Positions 351-25,423 of a DNA stretch of 64,000 nt are shown here, one piece after another. Positions within the stretch are counted from its first letter, which is position 1. Each line of letters opens with the position of its first letter. This stretch comes from Sulfurihydrogenibium sp. (GTDB lineage Bacteria; Aquificota; Aquificia; Aquificales; Hydrogenothermaceae): NCBI GenBank assembly GCA_037442825.1, contig JBBIPN010000001.1, forward strand, positions 2,325-66,324. Reading direction: 5' to 3'. Position numbers and translations under genes: made by a program. Below the pieces are notes generated by a model that was given only the letters and a program-made list of their open reading frames with translations, ran no database searches and was not told where the DNA came from.

Positions 351-812
351 TAGTGTTTTTAAACTGAACATTTTAGTGTAAATTTATATTGTACTTTAAA
401 AAAATTTAAATAGAGGAAAAATAAAATAAAGAAAAAACCCTTTAACCTTGGAAAAGATTTTTCAAAATATAGCTTTTCAATTTCCTATGGGACAAGTTTT
501 AGTTTTGTTACAGTATCTTAGATAAGGAACTTTATGCTAGTTAAGGAAAATTTCTTATTAATACTCTGGATTAAATTGAGTAATTAAAACTGAGAGTCTA
601 GCAAAATAAAGTTTAAAGAATAAAGTAAATCATCCTTTAAAGAAGGCATCTAAAGTTCTTTTTGCAAATATTTCATTGAAAGTGTATTTGCAAGATAAAA
701 CAGAAAAAAATATTCTCTTCTCAGAGTAAGGCTCCCAGATATAACTGAGAAAAAGCATCCTGAATTTCAAAGTCAAAGTAGGCTTAAGGCCTCTAATTTT
801 TGAAACACCCTA
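351..812 (+). mobile_element. Possible degraded DDE-transposase IS remnant
   Basis: Stop-ridden plus-strand fragments (LDKELYAS; KYFIESVFAR*NRKK) resemble DDE DKGY and R-x2-IE-x2-F-x3-K motifs. The end TTTTGAAACACCCTA looks like an IS terminus, with only a weak left-end match at 351-365. Confidence 0.3.
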
Positions 813-853
813 CATCATAATTTGGCTTTAAAATGCAAAATAATATAAAATAA

Positions 854-2224
854 TCAATAAACTTCTAATTTTATAAGATTTTGATTTTCATTTAAAACAG
901 GCATTACATTATACTTTTTATCTTTATTAACAATAATTTCAATAATATTTTCATTTTTTCCTTTAAATTCAATAGTACCTATTTTTTTATCATTAACAAT
1001 TAAATCTCTTGTAAAGGAAACTATATCTAATGACTTATCTCTATTTTCTAAATATGCATATACTATTACTCTATTTTGGATAGATTCTTTTATATCTATC
1101 TTTGATACTGTCCCCAGTTTTTTAGGTACAAATAAATTTACCACCTTAATGGGTGTTTTCGTAGTTTTTTCTTCTATCTTTTTTAAAGATAAATCTTCTT
1201 TCTTTACTATACTAGTATTTTGATCTTCTTGTGAAAACTCATTTTTCTCACTTTTAATATTTAAATTAAATCCTCCTATTTCAGGAGTTATATTTATTAA
1301 TTCATTCTTTGTGTATATAGCTTTTATTTTGGCTATTCCTTTAGAAAACTCTTCTGGTAATACTTTTTCTGGTATTAATTTACCATTCCCATTATGTCTT
1401 AACATGATAGGCTTTCCTATCTTATCGTAAACTTTTATTAAAAGTCCATTTTGGTCATATACTGATAAAATTATTTCAAACTCTTCACCAGCTTTTGTTT
1501 TTTGTGGATAATTTATTTTTACTTCAGATGGAATTTGTTTTACTACAGATAACGTTTTACTACCTAACAATTTCCTTGTAGAACTATCATAAATTTCTAA
1601 GGTTGTATCTTTAATATCAAGAGGTACAATTTTCAATGTTTTTTTACCATTATCAAACTCTTTATTTCTAATTGTTGATTTATACAAACCGTTTAACTGG
1701 ACGATTAATTCCTGTTTATCATAGGATGTATCTTTAACTAAGTTCCCATATTTATCATAAGCATTTATAACAATCTCTTTTTCATACTCTGGAATAAAAT
1801 CAGGAGAAGTAATAATATCTACTTTTTCAATTTTACCGTTTAAAACTTCAACAGAAATATTATCTAGTAAACCATTTGTATATTTATCTTTAATTTTTAT
1901 CGTTTTATTATTCAATAAAAATTCTAATTTATATACTCTAGGTAAGGTTTCTGCAAAATTTAAAGAAGATTTTCCATTTAAGAAATTAATTTTTTTCCTT
2001 ATTCCATTAATATCAACTTCTATAGATCCATTGAAATCTGATATATCGTTATCAAAAGGATCTTTTGCTGTAAGGTTTATACTAATATTTTCCCCAGCTC
2101 TAACTAACTTTTGATATTCTACAAAGAAATATGCTAAGTTTCCAGATTCAATCTTTATCTGACCATAAGAAAAGTTTATCAAATTTAATAGTAAAATTAT
2201 TATTGCAAAAACCTTTTTCATCAT
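854..2224 (-). CDS. Secreted hypothetical protein with three Ig-like repeats
   Basis: Signal peptide; three repeats of the type (AGE)-x4-I-x-(L/I)-x-(A/V)-x-D-x2-(D/G)-(N/L), then a K/E/T-rich linker and a beta-rich C-terminal domain. Confidence 0.55.
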   Translation of the reverse strand: MMKKVFAIIILLLNLINFSYGQIKIESGNLAYFFVEYQKLVRAGENISINLTAKDPFDNDISDFNGSIEVDINGIRKKINFLNGKSSLNFAETLPRVYKLEFLLNNKTIKIKDKYTNGLLDNISVEVLNGKIEKVDIITSPDFIPEYEKEIVINAYDKYGNLVKDTSYDKQELIVQLNGLYKSTIRNKEFDNGKKTLKIVPLDIKDTTLEIYDSSTRKLLGSKTLSVVKQIPSEVKINYPQKTKAGEEFEIILSVYDQNGLLIKVYDKIGKPIMLRHNGNGKLIPEKVLPEEFSKGIAKIKAIYTKNELINITPEIGGFNLNIKSEKNEFSQEDQNTSIVKKEDLSLKKIEEKTTKTPIKVVNLFVPKKLGTVSKIDIKESIQNRVIVYAYLENRDKSLDIVSFTRDLIVNDKKIGTIEFKGKNENIIEIIVNKDKKYNVMPVLNENQNLIKLEVY

Positions 2225-2390
2225 GGTTACCTCTCATAGGTTTTTATTATATTTTAACATAAAAAAATAACTACGGATTTTTTAAAAAGTACAATATTTT
2301 CTTCCTTTAAAATACTAAATTTCCTTTTTATACTATTTTAATTTTATATATAATTATTTTACATCAAAATTTTTGACAAGAGGTTAAAAA

Positions 2391-3266
2391 ATGAAAATAA
2401 TTGAGAAGCTTAAACAAACCGAAATAGGTATATCTTTTGAATTTTTTCCACCAAAAACACAAGATGCTGAAATATCTTTATTTAACACAATAGAAGATCT
2501 TAAACATATCAATCCTACATTTGTATCTGTTACCTATGGAGCAGGCGGTTCTACGAGAGAAAAAACAAGAGATATTGTAAAAAAATTAAATGAAGAAACA
2601 AACTTAACTGTAATGGCACATCTAACATGTGTTGGACATTATAAGGAAGAGATAAAAAATATTCTCGATGATTACAAAAATATCGGGATTGAAAATATTT
2701 TAGCTTTAAGGGGTGATATTCCTTTAAATTTTGAAAGGTCTAAAATACCTTTAGACGCTTGTAAATATGCTTCTGAACTTGTAAGTTTAATTAGGGAAAA
2801 CTATGATGATTATTTTTGTATCGCTGTTGCATCATATCCAGAAGGGCATCCAGAAAGTCCAAACTTAGAAAGGGATTTAATAAACTTTAAAAAGAAAGTA
2901 GAAGCTGGTGCTGATTTTTCTATAACACAGATGTTTTTTGATAATAGATATTTTTATGAGTTTATAGATAGATGCGAAAAAGCAAATATAAATATACCTA
3001 TAATACCAGGTATCATGCCTATAACAAACTTTAATCAGATTCGAAAATTTGCTTTACTGTGTGGTGCTACAATACCAGAAGATGTAGTAAAAATGTTTGA
3101 AAAGTATGCAGATAATTTGGAAGAAACAAAAAAGATAGGTATAGAGTTTGCTATAAAACAGTGTGAAGATTTAATTAAACACAATGTAAAAGGTTTACAT
3201 TTTTATACCTTAAATAAACCAGATGCAACTTTAAAGATTTATGAAAGCATAAAAAAATTGATTTAA
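2391..3266 (+). CDS. metF: 5,10-methylenetetrahydrofolate reductase
   Basis: [30 protein letters not shown] and GLHFYTLN motifs. Confidence 0.97.
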
Positions 3267-17775: not shown

Positions 17776-17792
17776 AGCAAATTTTATGCCAA
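17776..17792 (-). promoter_or_regulatory. sigma54 (-24/-12) promoter of the sox operon
   Basis: Minus strand TTGGCATAAAATTTGCT: GG and GC separated by exactly 10 nt, 37 nt upstream of the soxX ATG. Confidence 0.85.
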
Positions 17793-17834
17793 TTTTTAGG
17801 AGGCTATTTATAGTACTTCTCAAATAATAAACTA

Positions 17835-17869
17835 TCCAAAATGGAACAGTGTTGTCCAAAATGGAACAG
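17835..17869 (-). promoter_or_regulatory. Tandem enhancer (UAS) sites for a sigma54 activator
   Basis: Exact 15-bp direct repeat TCCAAAATGGAACAG at 17835 and 17855 (20-bp period); minus strand reads TGT-tccattttgg-ACA and TGT-tccattttgg-ATA. Confidence 0.7.
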
Positions 17870-21748: not shown

Positions 21749-23068
21749 TTATAATAAACCAAAGTTCTTCATCTTGGTTCTTAACTGCTTCCTTGATATA
21801 CCTAATTTTTGAGCTGCCCTTGTTTGATTAAAATTTTCTTCTTCAAGAACTTTTAATATTACTCTTTTTTCTATTTCATAAAGATTTAAATTATCTTTAT
21901 CTAATATAGTATCAACTTTATTTTTAAAACTATTTTTTACTCTATCAGGTAAATGATCTACGTTAATTATCTCTCCCTGACATAAAACTACTGCCCTTTC
22001 TATAACATTTTCAAGCTGTCTAACATTTCCTGGCCAATCGTAATTAACAAGAACATCTAAAGCTTCCTTATCAATATCATAAATATTTTTCCCATTTATT
22101 TTGCTAAATTTACTAATAAATTTTTCAACAAGTAAAGATATATCTTCCTTTCTTTCTCTTAACGGTGGTATTTTTAAGTGTATTACGTTTATTCGATAAA
22201 ATAGATCTTCTCTAAATTCTTTATTTTCAACCATTTCTTCAAGATTTCTATTTGTTGCAGATATAAACCTGCATTTTACTTTCACTAATTCTTTTCCACC
22301 AATTCTAAAAAATTCTTTCTCTTGTAAAACTCTAAGTAATTTAGCTTGCATAAAAAGTGGCATATCTCCTATTTCATCTAAAAACAATGTTCCTTCTTCT
22401 GCAATTTCTATCTTTCCTATCTCCTTATTTAATGCTCCAGTGTATGCTCCTTTTTCATGTCCAAAAAGTTCATTCTCAAATAGGTCAGAAGGTATAGCAG
22501 AGCAGTTGATTGCTATAAAAGGCTTATCTTTTCTTTTTGAACGTTTATGGATAGCTTTAGCTACAAGTTCTTTTCCTGTCCCACTTTCTCCTTCTATAAG
22601 TATTGAAGATTCACTTTTACTAACAATATCAATTTCTTTAAAAAGTTCTCTCATCTTTTTACTTTTTCCTATTATTCCTTCAAATTCAGATTCTTCAAAT
22701 TTTTTTTCTTGTTTTTCTTTATAAAACTCAATAATCTTAATTAAGTTATCTGTATCTATAGGTTTTGGTATATAGTGATTTGCTCCTTTTTTTACCGCAT
22801 CTACAGCTCCATTTATAGAACCATAAGCTGTAATAATAATAAAAGGTGTATTAATATCAATTTTCCTAAAATATTCTAATATTTCTATCCCTGTCCCATC
22901 TTCTAAAAGAAAATCTGAAAGGATAAGGTTATATTGATTTTTAGATATTAAGTTTAAGCTGTCAGTTTTTGTTTTCGCTATATCAACACTGTATCCAGCT
23001 TGAGTTAAAACTGTTTTAATAACTCTTAATATACTTTCTTCATCATCAATAAGTAGAATCTTAAACAT
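21749..23068 (-). CDS. sigma54-dependent response regulator (NtrC family)
   Basis: Receiver domain (LLIDDE, ILSD, ITAYG); GESGTGKE; GAYTGA; LFLDEIGD; RFISATN; WPGNVRQLEN; Fis-type HTH. Confidence 0.96.
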   Translation of the reverse strand: MFKILLIDDEESILRVIKTVLTQAGYSVDIAKTKTDSLNLISKNQYNLILSDFLLEDGTGIEILEYFRKIDINTPFIIITAYGSINGAVDAVKKGANHYIPKPIDTDNLIKIIEFYKEKQEKKFEESEFEGIIGKSKKMRELFKEIDIVSKSESSILIEGESGTGKELVAKAIHKRSKRKDKPFIAINCSAIPSDLFENELFGHEKGAYTGALNKEIGKIEIAEEGTLFLDEIGDMPLFMQAKLLRVLQEKEFFRIGGKELVKVKCRFISATNRNLEEMVENKEFREDLFYRINVIHLKIPPLRERKEDISLLVEKFISKFSKINGKNIYDIDKEALDVLVNYDWPGNVRQLENVIERAVVLCQGEIINVDHLPDRVKNSFKNKVDTILDKDNLNLYEIEKRVILKVLEEENFNQTRAAQKLGISRKQLRTKMKNFGLL

Positions 23069-24617
23069 TTCTTCTAACCTTTATAGGTAGTTCTATTATA
23101 AATTTAGTGTATTTACGATACTCTGAATTTAAATTTATTGTTCCTCCATTTAAGAAAACGATTTTATAAACCATTGGTAAACCAAGACCTGTACCTTTTG
23201 GTTTTGTAGTAAAAAATGGTTTAAATATCCTTTCTTTATGCTCTTGTTTTATTCCTATCCCATTATCCTCTATAGTTAAAACGATTTTTTGTTTATTATC
23301 TACAAAACTGGTTTTTATTTTTATATATCCATCGTCTATATTTTTTTCTTTTATAGCATCTATAGAATTAAGAACAAGATTTACAATAGCTTGTTTTAGT
23401 AAGTTATCATCTAAAAAAATCAAAGGTAAATTTTCATCTAACTCTAAAATAAGTTTTATATTGTTATCTTCACAATCATAAATTAAAAGTTTAACAGAAT
23501 CTTTTACAACTTCATTTATATCTGTCAGTTTAAAGTTTGGTTCTATAAGTTTAGAGAAATTTAAAAATGATATTGTCATATCATTAAGTCTATTACTTTT
23601 TTCTTTTATAATTTTCCCAAACTCTCTTATTATTTCATCTTTAGAATTATTTTTTATATAGTTTGCTGCATTAGATATAGAATAAAGGGCATTTTTTATT
23701 TCATGTGCTATTTTTGCACTCATCTCCCCCATAGTAGCCATACAACGCAGTGTTTCCCTTTCTTTATAAGCTTCTTCAAGTTTCTTTATATAATCATTTA
23801 ATGATGCAACCATTATATAAAAACTGTAAGTAAGCTTGTCTACCTCATCTCCAGTGTATTTATTAAATACTTCACATTTAGAACACTCTTTAATAGCAAT
23901 TTCTCCTATATTTAAAAGTATGTCAGCTGAATCTTTTGAAGCTAACCAGCAAGTATCTAAAATATTTTTAATACACTCTCTATCATTTTTTGAGATTGGT
24001 TTTATATCTATTATTGTATTTAGATTATTAAAATCTTGAACAAATAAATTTAAAATTTTTTCTTTCAAATTTACAAGAGGTCTTACATTATAAGAAGAAA
24101 TTAAAAATATACCTACAAAGGAAGCAAAAAATATAAATAGTATTACTAAAGATAGGGGATATATAATATTTTCTATATCTTTGGCAAGTTCTTCTTTAAT
24201 AGTATCTTCATCGTAAAAGACAATTATTTTTCCTATAACATCATCACCAACGTCAAGATTAAAATAAAAAGATTTAAAACTTTGTTTGGTAAATCCAGTA
24301 TAAATTTTCCCTATATAAGATATATTTGAACTTCCAATTATTTTCCCCTCTTTGTCTGTTATAAAAACTTCTTTAACAGATTTATTTTTCATAACAAAAT
24401 TGACTAATTCATCTATCTTCTCAAAATTTTTAACAACTATTTTCTCTTTATAGCTTTCTGATAAACTAATAATATTATCTTCTAATGATTCAATTCTATC
24501 ATTTAAAATTTTTCCATAGAAACTATAGACAGTTAAAATCATAGAAGCAAAAAGAATAACTAATATATAAATTGAGATTGATAAAGATGTTTTAATCTTT
24601 ATGGATAAATTTTTCAT
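23061..24617 (-). CDS. Membrane sensor histidine kinase with a Cys-rich insert in HAMP
   Basis: Two TM segments, small periplasmic domain, HAMP, AHEIKN H-box, N-box, EDNGIG, PFFTTK and GTGLGL. Confidence 0.93.
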   Translation of the reverse strand: MKNLSIKIKTSLSISIYILVILFASMILTVYSFYGKILNDRIESLEDNIISLSESYKEKIVVKNFEKIDELVNFVMKNKSVKEVFITDKEGKIIGSSNISYIGKIYTGFTKQSFKSFYFNLDVGDDVIGKIIVFYDEDTIKEELAKDIENIIYPLSLVILFIFFASFVGIFLISSYNVRPLVNLKEKILNLFVQDFNNLNTIIDIKPISKNDRECIKNILDTCWLASKDSADILLNIGEIAIKECSKCEVFNKYTGDEVDKLTYSFYIMVASLNDYIKKLEEAYKERETLRCMATMGEMSAKIAHEIKNALYSISNAANYIKNNSKDEIIREFGKIIKEKSNRLNDMTISFLNFSKLIEPNFKLTDINEVVKDSVKLLIYDCEDNNIKLILELDENLPLIFLDDNLLKQAIVNLVLNSIDAIKEKNIDDGYIKIKTSFVDNKQKIVLTIEDNGIGIKQEHKERIFKPFFTTKPKGTGLGLPMVYKIVFLNGGTINLNSEYRKYTKFIIELPIKVRRNV

Positions 24618-25423
24618 TTTAAAACTGGGAAAAGGTCAAGTATTTTTCTATAGTTTTTTATTATTTCAAACATTTTTGGTTTTGGTTTTTCAAAGCCATC
24701 AATTTCCATACTCTTTAATGTTTCTTTATCTACTGTAAAAAGTGCTTTTTCTATTTGGTTATCTAAATTTTTATCTAAATTTTTATCAACCATTATAATA
24801 TGTCTTGGAAAAGAAGGTGATTTAGCTATAACTCTAAGCTGAGATTGATAAGGTATTAAACTTTCTTCTCTAATACCAGCAACATCTGCAACACCTGCTA
24901 AAAGTGATAAAATAGCACCTTTGTCTGTCCCAGAACTCCATATATTTACTACATCTTCCTGTGTAATACCAGCATTCGTAAGCATGTACAATGGCATAAC
25001 ACAGTTACTCATACAAATTGGACTACCAAGTGTTATTTTCTTTCCTTTCACATCACCTATAGACTTTATATTACTATCCTTTTTTACTACTAAAACACCA
25101 TTTTCAACAGCTTTTCCGTTTATTTTCATAACAGCTACTGCCTCTACGTTAAACTTCCTTTTCAACTCAAAATATACAACTGAGCAACCAACAGCTAAAT
25201 GAGCTTCTTTCTTTTTAAATAACCTATAAACTTCATCTACTTTTTCTACTATAATAACTTCCACTTCTTTATTTAGATTTTTAGATAGATATTTAGATAA
25301 CGCTGAATATCTTTTATATTCTTCAATAGGATTTCCATAAGATAAAACCACAAAGTTTAATCGTTCCTGTGCAAAAGATATACTAAATATACTGAATATA
25401 GCAATAATTATTTTTACAATCAT
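24614..25423 (-). CDS. Periplasmic binding protein, PhnD/phosphonate-binding fold
   Basis: Signal peptide; GVLVVKKDSNIKSIGDVKGK, LLAGVADVAG and KSPSFPRH patterns; ATGA overlap with the kinase; no ABC permease nearby. Confidence 0.85.
   Translation of the reverse strand: MIVKIIIAIFSIFSISFAQERLNFVVLSYGNPIEEYKRYSALSKYLSKNLNKEVEVIIVEKVDEVYRLFKKKEAHLAVGCSVVYFELKRKFNVEAVAVMKINGKAVENGVLVVKKDSNIKSIGDVKGKKITLGSPICMSNCVMPLYMLTNAGITQEDVVNIWSSGTDKGAILSLLAGVADVAGIREESLIPYQSQLRVIAKSPSFPRHIIMVDKNLDKNLDNQIEKALFTVDKETLKSMEIDGFEKPKPKMFEIIKNYRKILDLFPVLK

Follow-up and report, generated by a model that had tools for sequence, protein, structure and literature searches.

A four-cysteine insert in the HAMP-like relay of a sox-linked sensor kinase of Sulfurihydrogenibium, a probable reduced two-CW domain

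The question raised by this locus is why a membrane-bound histidine kinase should carry a tight group of four cysteines within the element that relays its signal. The window, i.e. the whole stretch of 64,000 nucleotides of Sulfurihydrogenibium sp. analyzed here (contig JBBIPN010000001.1), encodes a sensor histidine kinase of 518 residues (23061..24617, minus strand; HisKA 1.4e-08, HATPase_c 8.3e-22), in which the original prediction had described a motif C215-x7-C223W-x21-C245-x2-C248 at 23850-24020, placed it inside the HAMP domain and likened it to one half of a two-CW domain. Both the motif and its location were accurate, with residues 200-256 of the translation corresponding to 23850..24020 and the motif itself, C215-x7-C223-W224-x21-C245-x2-C248, spanning 23874..23975. 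Our analysis suggests that the insert bearing these cysteines (residues 209-255, 23853..23993, minus strand) is very probably a reduced two-CW domain, a derived variant that the curated model of this family misses, and that its four cysteines most likely form a single tetra-thiolate metal centre, with either zinc or an iron-sulfur (Fe-S) cluster, that would clamp the connector of the HAMP.

We judged the module to be genuine chiefly because of its conservation, which is stronger evidence than the clustering of the cysteines as such. The kinase has six cysteines in total (215, 223, 245, 248, 292 and 382) and, when six cysteines were placed randomly in 518 residues, four fell inside 34 residues in ~1.2% of trials; the clustering is unusual, not extreme by chance. 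On the other hand, 14/14 database homologues (47-82% identity) share C215, C223, W224, C245 and C248 and show no gap between them, and the same five residues are identical in 30/30 orthologues (45-80% identity) drawn from eight genera within a single Aquificota family, in which the span from C215 to C248 contains zero gaps even though the mean column identity of the insert is only 57%. Conservation, the absence of which the original prediction had named as refuting it, was found for the residues and for their spacing alike. Among the 178 genomes of the phylum that were searched, the kinase occurs as a single copy in 34, all belonging to this family and covering eight of its ten genera, with no credible match outside the family; two weak matches beyond it (G149 and G051) were discarded because they are not kinases. 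An exhaustive HMMER search with residues 154-277 against 1.84 billion representative proteins returned only four clusters; three of these belong to the kinase's own family, and P0021 alone comes from outside it.

P0021 is among the closest outside relatives (29% identity to the query, E 1.4e-4 by HMMER), with a match to sCache_3_2 at 2.5e-11. At the corresponding place it has a stretch with seven cysteines that passes NF045718, the NCBIfam model of 'two-CW domain-containing protein' (80 positions, curated cut-off 35 bits), at 35.5 bits, and the flanks of this stretch become a HAMP above cut-off (29.3 bits) once the insert is deleted in silico. Further two-CW members were retrieved from genomes using the motif of P0021; an earlier scan of genome contigs with the HAMP and two-CW of P0021, in which the patterns were drawn from helix 1, had found no relative. 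Among the members retrieved, the kinases L054 (Omnitrophota) and L055 (Deltaproteobacteria) likewise have a two-CW domain nested in the HAMP, their HAMPs being matched natively in two stretches (32.8 and 35 bits, respectively) and contiguously at 39.7 and 42.3 bits when freed of the insert. In all, nesting of a full two-CW module in a HAMP was confirmed in four proteins. The remaining two-CW copies either stand alone as small proteins or form terminal domains; scores of up to 116 bits were reached by L058-L070.

Comparison of the window insert with these domains, cysteine by cysteine, yielded a consistent register. In the 14 true two-CW members, C1-W, C2, C3, C4-W, C6 and C7 are invariant and C5 is present in at least 90%. 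BLASTP and both MAFFT alignments (one of the insert, one of the whole relay) agree that C223-W corresponds to C4-W and C245-x2-C248 to C6-x2-C7; C215 corresponds to C3 in both MAFFT alignments, whereas BLASTP pairs C215 instead with the second cysteine of P0021. Proline follows C3 in 90% of the true two-CW members and the cysteine aligned to it in 4/29 kinase orthologues. The stretch C245-x2-C248-x-F superposes on C6-x2-C7-x-[FY], with the GDE of helix 2 at equal distance after it, and the spacing from C4 to C6 is 21 residues in the window kinase vs. 22 in P0021. With hhalign, the insert without its HAMP helices aligned to the 14 true two-CW domains at E 1e-4 over 34 columns, again superposing the CW and the CxxC. 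The NF045718 model itself reached 15-18.6 bits, i.e. sub-threshold, on the inserts of four orthologues (from model position 33 or 39 to 79 of 80), and was the family matched by the largest number of members when all 29 inserts were scanned. What the window family does not have is the first knuckle CW-x4-C (C1-W and C2) and C5. Since the four cysteines align to C3, C4(W), C6 and C7, with C1(W), C2 and C5 missing, we read the insert as a two-CW domain in reduced form; the earlier likening to a half two-CW domain thus holds by homology, given the NF045718 domains nested in P0021, L054 and L055 and the alignment of the four cysteines to the C-terminal cysteines of two-CW.

Membership in NF045718 proper is a different matter. 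The family is defined by a score of at least 35 bits and by seven cysteines with two CW dipeptides, and the insert falls short on both counts, having 4/7 of the conserved cysteines and 1/2 of the CW dipeptides and being confined to one Aquificota family. It does have the signature of the C-terminal half, CW-x~21-C-x2-C-x-[FY], and the nested position in the HAMP connector. More specifically, it occupies the place in the connector that the domain has in P0021, L054 and L055, right ahead of the GDE of helix 2, and its ending C(P)...CW-x21/22-C-x2-C-x-[FY] is shared with the two-CW kinases, as are the overall layout of the kinase and an upstream gene for a PhnD-like periplasmic substrate-binding protein.

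To place the insert within the relay, we considered the layout of the whole kinase, all coordinates below being on the minus strand. As judged from the translation and domain matches, a basic N-terminus is followed by a first transmembrane segment (TM1, residues about 12-33), a periplasmic part of ~120 residues, a second transmembrane segment (TM2, residues 153-176, hydrophobic YPLSLVILFIFFASFVGIFLISSY, 24090..24161), a split HAMP-like relay, HisKA and HATPase_c (the latter covering residues 403-512). Within the periplasmic part, residues 39-110 gave weak matches only, to dCache_1 (E 0.012) and sCache_3_2 (E 0.063). A cytoplasmic location of the module, as had been proposed, follows from this topology of two transmembrane segments, which is itself inferred from sequence. 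Directly after TM2 comes HAMP-like helix 1 (AS1, residues 179-193, RPLVNLKEKILNLFV, 24039..24083; helix 179-193 in the AlphaFold model) and then a remnant of the connector (residues 194-208, QDFNNLNTIIDIKPI, ending in IDIKPI, 23994..24038), which, in alignment, matches the connector of L054 and L055 (GNLxxR[IV]K) as far as the proline ahead of their first CW. The insert stretch reads SKNDRE-C215-IKNILDT-C223-W-LASKDSADILLNIGEIAIKE-C245-SK-C248-EVFNKYT, with C215 at 23973..23975, C223-W224 at 23946..23951, C245 at 23883..23885 and C248 at 23874..23876. HAMP-like helix 2 (AS2, residues 256-284, 23766..23852; helix 258-284 in the AlphaFold model), ~65 residues away from helix 1, begins with GDEVDKLTYSFYIMVASL (residues 256-273), harbors the motif GDE..L..SF..M and runs toward the DHp, where the predicted phospho-acceptor H305 (23703..23705) lies in the H-box SAKIAHEIKNAL, within the HisKA match of residues 296-357, and is invariant.

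Whether the insert lies inside a HAMP domain depends on how the HAMP is defined. Two amphipathic helices follow TM2, with a proline in AS1 and an [DE]E..L...F..M motif in AS2, and P180 and L184 of helix 1 as well as E258, L262, S265, F266 and M269 of helix 2 are invariant among the kinase orthologues; helix 1 aligns with the AS1 of the true HAMPs in L054, L055 and P0021, and helix 2 aligns with the AS2 of true HAMPs. The Pfam HAMP model (PF00672, cut-off 25 bits) did not match the window kinase, be it in its native form or after removal of the insert in silico, and on insert-deleted orthologues it gave full-length alignments (profile positions 1-52) that remained sub-threshold, at 12.2-19.7 bits vs. 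25. Compared with canonical HAMPs (PF00672; Af1503, NarQ and Tsr), the window relay is alike in following TM2 directly, in the proline of helix 1 and in the motif of helix 2 leading into the DHp; it differs in that its connector holds ~47 extra residues and its flanks stay below the Pfam cut-off even when insert-free. By homology and position, the insert lies within a HAMP, and by the Pfam criterion applied to the window protein it does not. The placement given in the original prediction stands as regards the position in the connector of a HAMP-type relay, not as regards a formal HAMP match.

How might such an insert work? An AlphaFold model built with 29 sequences (mean predicted local distance difference test score, pLDDT, of 76.9) shows helix 179-193 and then a non-helical segment 194-229 that contains C215 and C223; helix 230-246 follows and has C245 at its end, and C248 opens a short helix, 249-255, ahead of the long helix 258-284, so that the CxxC is positioned at a helix-helix junction; modelling of the 46-residue insert alone returned the same arrangement (pLDDT 77). 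We postulate that a descendant of the two-CW domain in a Hydrogenothermaceae-type kinase lost the CW-x4-C knuckle and the fifth cysteine while keeping C3, C4(W), C6 and C7, and that the four kept cysteines may bind one centre, either Zn(Cys)4 or a single Fe-S cluster. With two of its ligands near the beginning of the insert and the other two near the end, such a centre would tie the two ends together and thereby let helix 1 and helix 2 of the HAMP pack as a relay; if the centre were lost, oxidised or modified, the connector would loosen and the output of the kinase would change. In this scheme the PhnD-like protein, the kinase and a sigma54-dependent activator would together switch on the sox operon for thiosulfate oxidation, the primary signal most likely being periplasmic thiosulfate or a related sulfur oxyanion perceived via the binding protein and the Cache-like domain, with the Cys4 centre possibly adding a cytoplasmic condition, be it redox, oxygen or metal state. 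Taken as a whole, this combination of a reduced two-CW domain, one Cys4 metal centre, a clamped HAMP connector and a sox sensor is the best explanation that we can offer, and we hold it with a little more than even confidence. Its parts are not equally firm. What the data show is how strictly the insert is conserved, where it sits, its kinship with two-CW and its sox and sigma54 surroundings; metal binding, the clamp and any responsiveness are inferred. That the insert binds a metal at all is quite probable given the cysteine pattern, while the idea of a centre that responds to conditions is close to an even call.

A bolder extension would have a redox- or oxygen-labile Fe-S or Zn-thiolate centre serve as a removable clamp of the HAMP, in such a way that sox induction needs both thiosulfate and a permissive cytoplasm, and would have the widespread, full two-CW domain comprise two separable metal sites. 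The joint loss of C1, C2 and C5 hints at a full domain with two sites, of which C3, C4, C6 and C7 would be the set coupled to the HAMP, and it is this joint loss that underlies the two-site hypothesis; we put the extension forward as a tentative and rather doubtful possibility. Cytoplasmic sensing by cysteine clusters has precedents, in that NreB and AirS are cytoplasmic sensor kinases with Fe-S in PAS or GAF domains and RsrA is a Zn-thiolate switch in an anti-sigma domain. As in these proteins, cysteines clustered on the cytoplasmic side of a signalling protein could serve to read out the redox state; unlike the window insert, their cofactor sites reside in PAS/GAF or anti-sigma domains, outside any HAMP connector, and no family of the NreB, AirS or RsrA type was matched in domain scans of the window kinase. 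Heme binding was rejected for want of a CxxCH motif.

Several results weigh against the explanation favored here and have to be set beside it. The window insert gave no match to NF045718 even at E<=10, and neither the insert alone nor the insert with its flanks matched a Pfam or NCBIfam family; the hhalign probability for the relation to two-CW was only 57.6%. The HAMP flanks of the kinase family are sub-threshold or undetected by Pfam, and an insert-free family profile matched no HAMP structure in the PDB. In sequence searches of the PDB, the family profile with or without the insert gave no significant match, and Foldseek against the PDB gave none at E<=0.001 for the 110-residue model and no match for the 46-residue model. 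The combination of C-x7-C and C-x2-C is no textbook signature of Zn or Fe-S. A literature search found no published function, structure or paper on the two-CW domain, and because two-CW is without a published function, homology to it transfers no mechanism. A search of the literature likewise found no paper on a cysteine-rich insert in a histidine-kinase HAMP together with an iron-sulfur cluster.

Of the other explanations, one accepts the two-CW origin and regards the Cys4 site as a purely structural zinc knuckle that folds the connector at about 70 degrees C, leaving the kinase with a single, periplasmic input. Four invariant cysteines at fixed spacing are typical of such sites, the two ligands at each end of the insert are what a staple requires, and the retention of the kinase after three of seven ancestral cysteines had gone suggests that the ancestral sensing chemistry was dispensable. 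A PHD-type zinc-finger profile also matched, weakly and non-significantly (E about 1), which we did not take as evidence. However, a connector of normal length needs no insert, and that ~47 residues have been kept in eight genera suggests that they do more than add stability; moreover, two-CW recurs in signalling proteins of many kinds, which speaks for a role as an input. We consider a purely structural site unlikely, although it is the alternative that we take most seriously. Less probable still is the notion of a metal-free thiol switch, put forward in the original prediction, in which disulfide, persulfide or polysulfide bridges, formed from cytoplasmic sulfane sulfur or by oxidants, would reset the HAMP. 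The tie of the kinase to sulfur-oxidation genes, the classic redox pair formed by CxxC and a fifth invariant cysteine, C292, near the phospho-acceptor histidine would all suit such a switch. Against this, a thiol switch usually gets by with one or two cysteines, whereas here there are four, invariantly spaced and accompanied by a neighboring tryptophan, and Sox chemistry is periplasmic whereas the module is cytoplasmic. The seven-cysteine homologues also occur in metagenome-assembled genomes of Omnitrophota, Deltaproteobacteria and Rokubacteriota and in small stand-alone proteins that have no sox link; as the full two-CW relatives examined here come from lineages with no sox link shown, a role specific to sulfur is argued against. 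The link to sulfane sulfur made in the original prediction draws on the sox context and on nothing else, and nothing specific supports the persulfide idea.

It is also conceivable that the cysteines form permanent intramolecular disulfides that stabilize the insert in the cytoplasm of a thermophile, or that the insert is a docking surface peculiar to this lineage and came to look like two-CW by convergence. Some thermophiles, Aquificota included, are reported to tolerate disulfides in the cytoplasm, which lends the disulfide version some plausibility, and convergence would fit the score below the NF045718 cut-off and the moderate hhalign probability. However, convergence would have to account for the same insertion point, a nearly identical spacing from C4 to C6, a C-x2-C-x-[FY] right before GDE and the same gene pair, all of them coinciding with those of the true two-CW kinases, which jointly makes it unlikely. 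We regard this explanation, in either version, as very improbable.

The neighboring genes tie the kinase to a defined transcriptional output. The first gene of the operon (24614..25423, minus strand) encodes the PhnD-like periplasmic substrate-binding protein (Pfam Phosphonate-bd 2.1e-50), with its stop overlapping the start of the kinase gene. This protein scores 85.9 bits vs. the cut-off of 261 for the NCBIfam PhnD equivalog; its ligand is probably not a phosphonate and, by context, is likely to be a sulfur oxyanion. The kinase gene is followed by that of a TspR-like, sigma54-dependent response regulator with REC, AAA+ and HTH_8 domains (21749..23068, minus strand; Sigma54_activat 3.3e-72, Response_reg 4.7e-24, HTH_8 1.3e-13). 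The genes for binding protein, kinase and regulator are joined by overlapping junctions of the ATGA type, and immediately downstream of them come genes for a cytochrome c, two FccB-like proteins and a thioredoxin, together with soxY, soxZ, soxA and soxB. Binding-protein and kinase genes are adjacent in 10/10 related genomes, with the regulator nearby in 10/10 and the sox genes adjacent in 8/10, even where the regulator is divergent beside sox. Across the 50 genomes of the family, the kinase was found in 34/37 SoxB-positive and 0/13 SoxB-negative genomes, i.e. all 34 genomes with the kinase have SoxB. A PhnD-like gene also immediately precedes P0021 and L054, as it does the window kinase, which independently backs the kinship with two-CW, and because distant seven-cysteine kinases also follow such a gene, the pairing of a PhnD-like protein with a Cache kinase carrying a cysteine module in its HAMP appears to be an older and wider architecture than the Aquificota family itself. 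At L053 (4252..6828) and L054 (about 540..3060), kinases with a full seven-cysteine two-CW nested in the HAMP stand directly after a PhnD-like gene.

Upstream of orf171-trx-soxYZAB we noticed a predicted sigma54 promoter of the -24/-12 type (TGGCATAAAATTTGCT, 17776..17791, minus strand), with one mismatch to the consensus; the same element stands upstream of orf171 in 7/9 loci, and the remaining two loci have close matches to it. It is accompanied by predicted twin enhancer sites, TGTTCCATTTTGGACA and TGTTCCATTTTGGATA (17833..17868, minus strand), which are conserved as a pair in related loci, are 20 bp apart and have the form TGTTCCATTTTGGA[CT]A (TGTYCCA-N3-TGGRACA). Box and twin sites together make up a complete sigma54 control region (17776..17868). 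The TspS/TspR system was reportedly described by Li et al. 2017. TspS/TspR is a two-component system that depends on sigma54 and controls the sox-II cluster in Acidithiobacillus caldus (PMC6335251, PMC12194929), in which TspS carries a periplasmic sCache_3_2 domain (PMC12194929) and the upstream activating sequence of TspR is TGTCCCAAATGGGACA (PMC6335251). The predicted twin enhancers essentially match this published site. The window system is assigned, from its sequence features, as a TspS/TspR-type, sigma54-dependent regulator of sox. The two systems share a membrane kinase, a REC-AAA+-HTH_8 activator beside sox, a sigma54 promoter and the enhancer, and the weak matches of the window kinase suggest that its periplasmic part may be of the Cache type as well; they differ in that the window system adds a co-transcribed PhnD-like binding protein and that no cysteine module is described for TspS in PMC6335251 or PMC12194929, the comparison being with the published description. 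SulRS of Campylobacterota, the other sox two-component system that has been described, is of the OmpR type with an EnvZ-like kinase; it is unrelated and was therefore set aside as nearest regulator.

Viewed in this light, the module is a minimal form of a known, uncharacterised kind in a known type of regulatory kinase; it introduces no new principle and represents a favorable test system for two-CW. The kinase family offers a four-cysteine version of the domain, at the same place of the HAMP relay, in cultivable thermophiles, and the output of the kinase is clear and reportable, namely sigma54-driven sox transcription via a TspR-type enhancer. Because this minimal version has a reportable output, the ligand of the module, its role as a second input and the set of cysteines coupled to the HAMP become directly testable. 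If the labile clamp with its two-site corollary were true, it would provide the first mechanistic handle on an uncharacterised class of sensors embedded in HAMP, in a thermostable protein with a defined regulon. The paradigm of sox regulation by TspS/TspR is likewise extended to Aquificota, with a dedicated PhnD-like binding protein added to it.

Some observations on the kinase and its locus remain to be recorded. The fifth conserved cysteine, C292 (23742..23744, minus strand), which is located 13 residues ahead of H305, is a cysteine in 29/29 orthologues covering the column and is without a counterpart in P0021; residing in the helix that leads to the DHp, it may act as a redox-sensitive site of its own or belong to a dimer interface. 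An open reading frame of 67 residues on the plus strand (23836..24039) overlaps the region coding for the insert and is contained wholly inside the conserved kinase frame; as a gene it is unsupported, and we take it to be a by-product of that frame. The placement of the regulator gene varies among genera: it comes after the kinase gene in the window genus and in one further genus, where the cytochrome c and FccB genes separate regulator and sox, and at seven loci from several genera (L045, L046 and L048-L052) it lies outside the operon of binding protein and kinase, in divergent orientation and directly upstream of orf171-sox. Lastly, three genomes (G135, G095 and G124), two of which are 99-100% complete, have SoxB without a detectable kinase, and these must regulate sox differently or express it constitutively.

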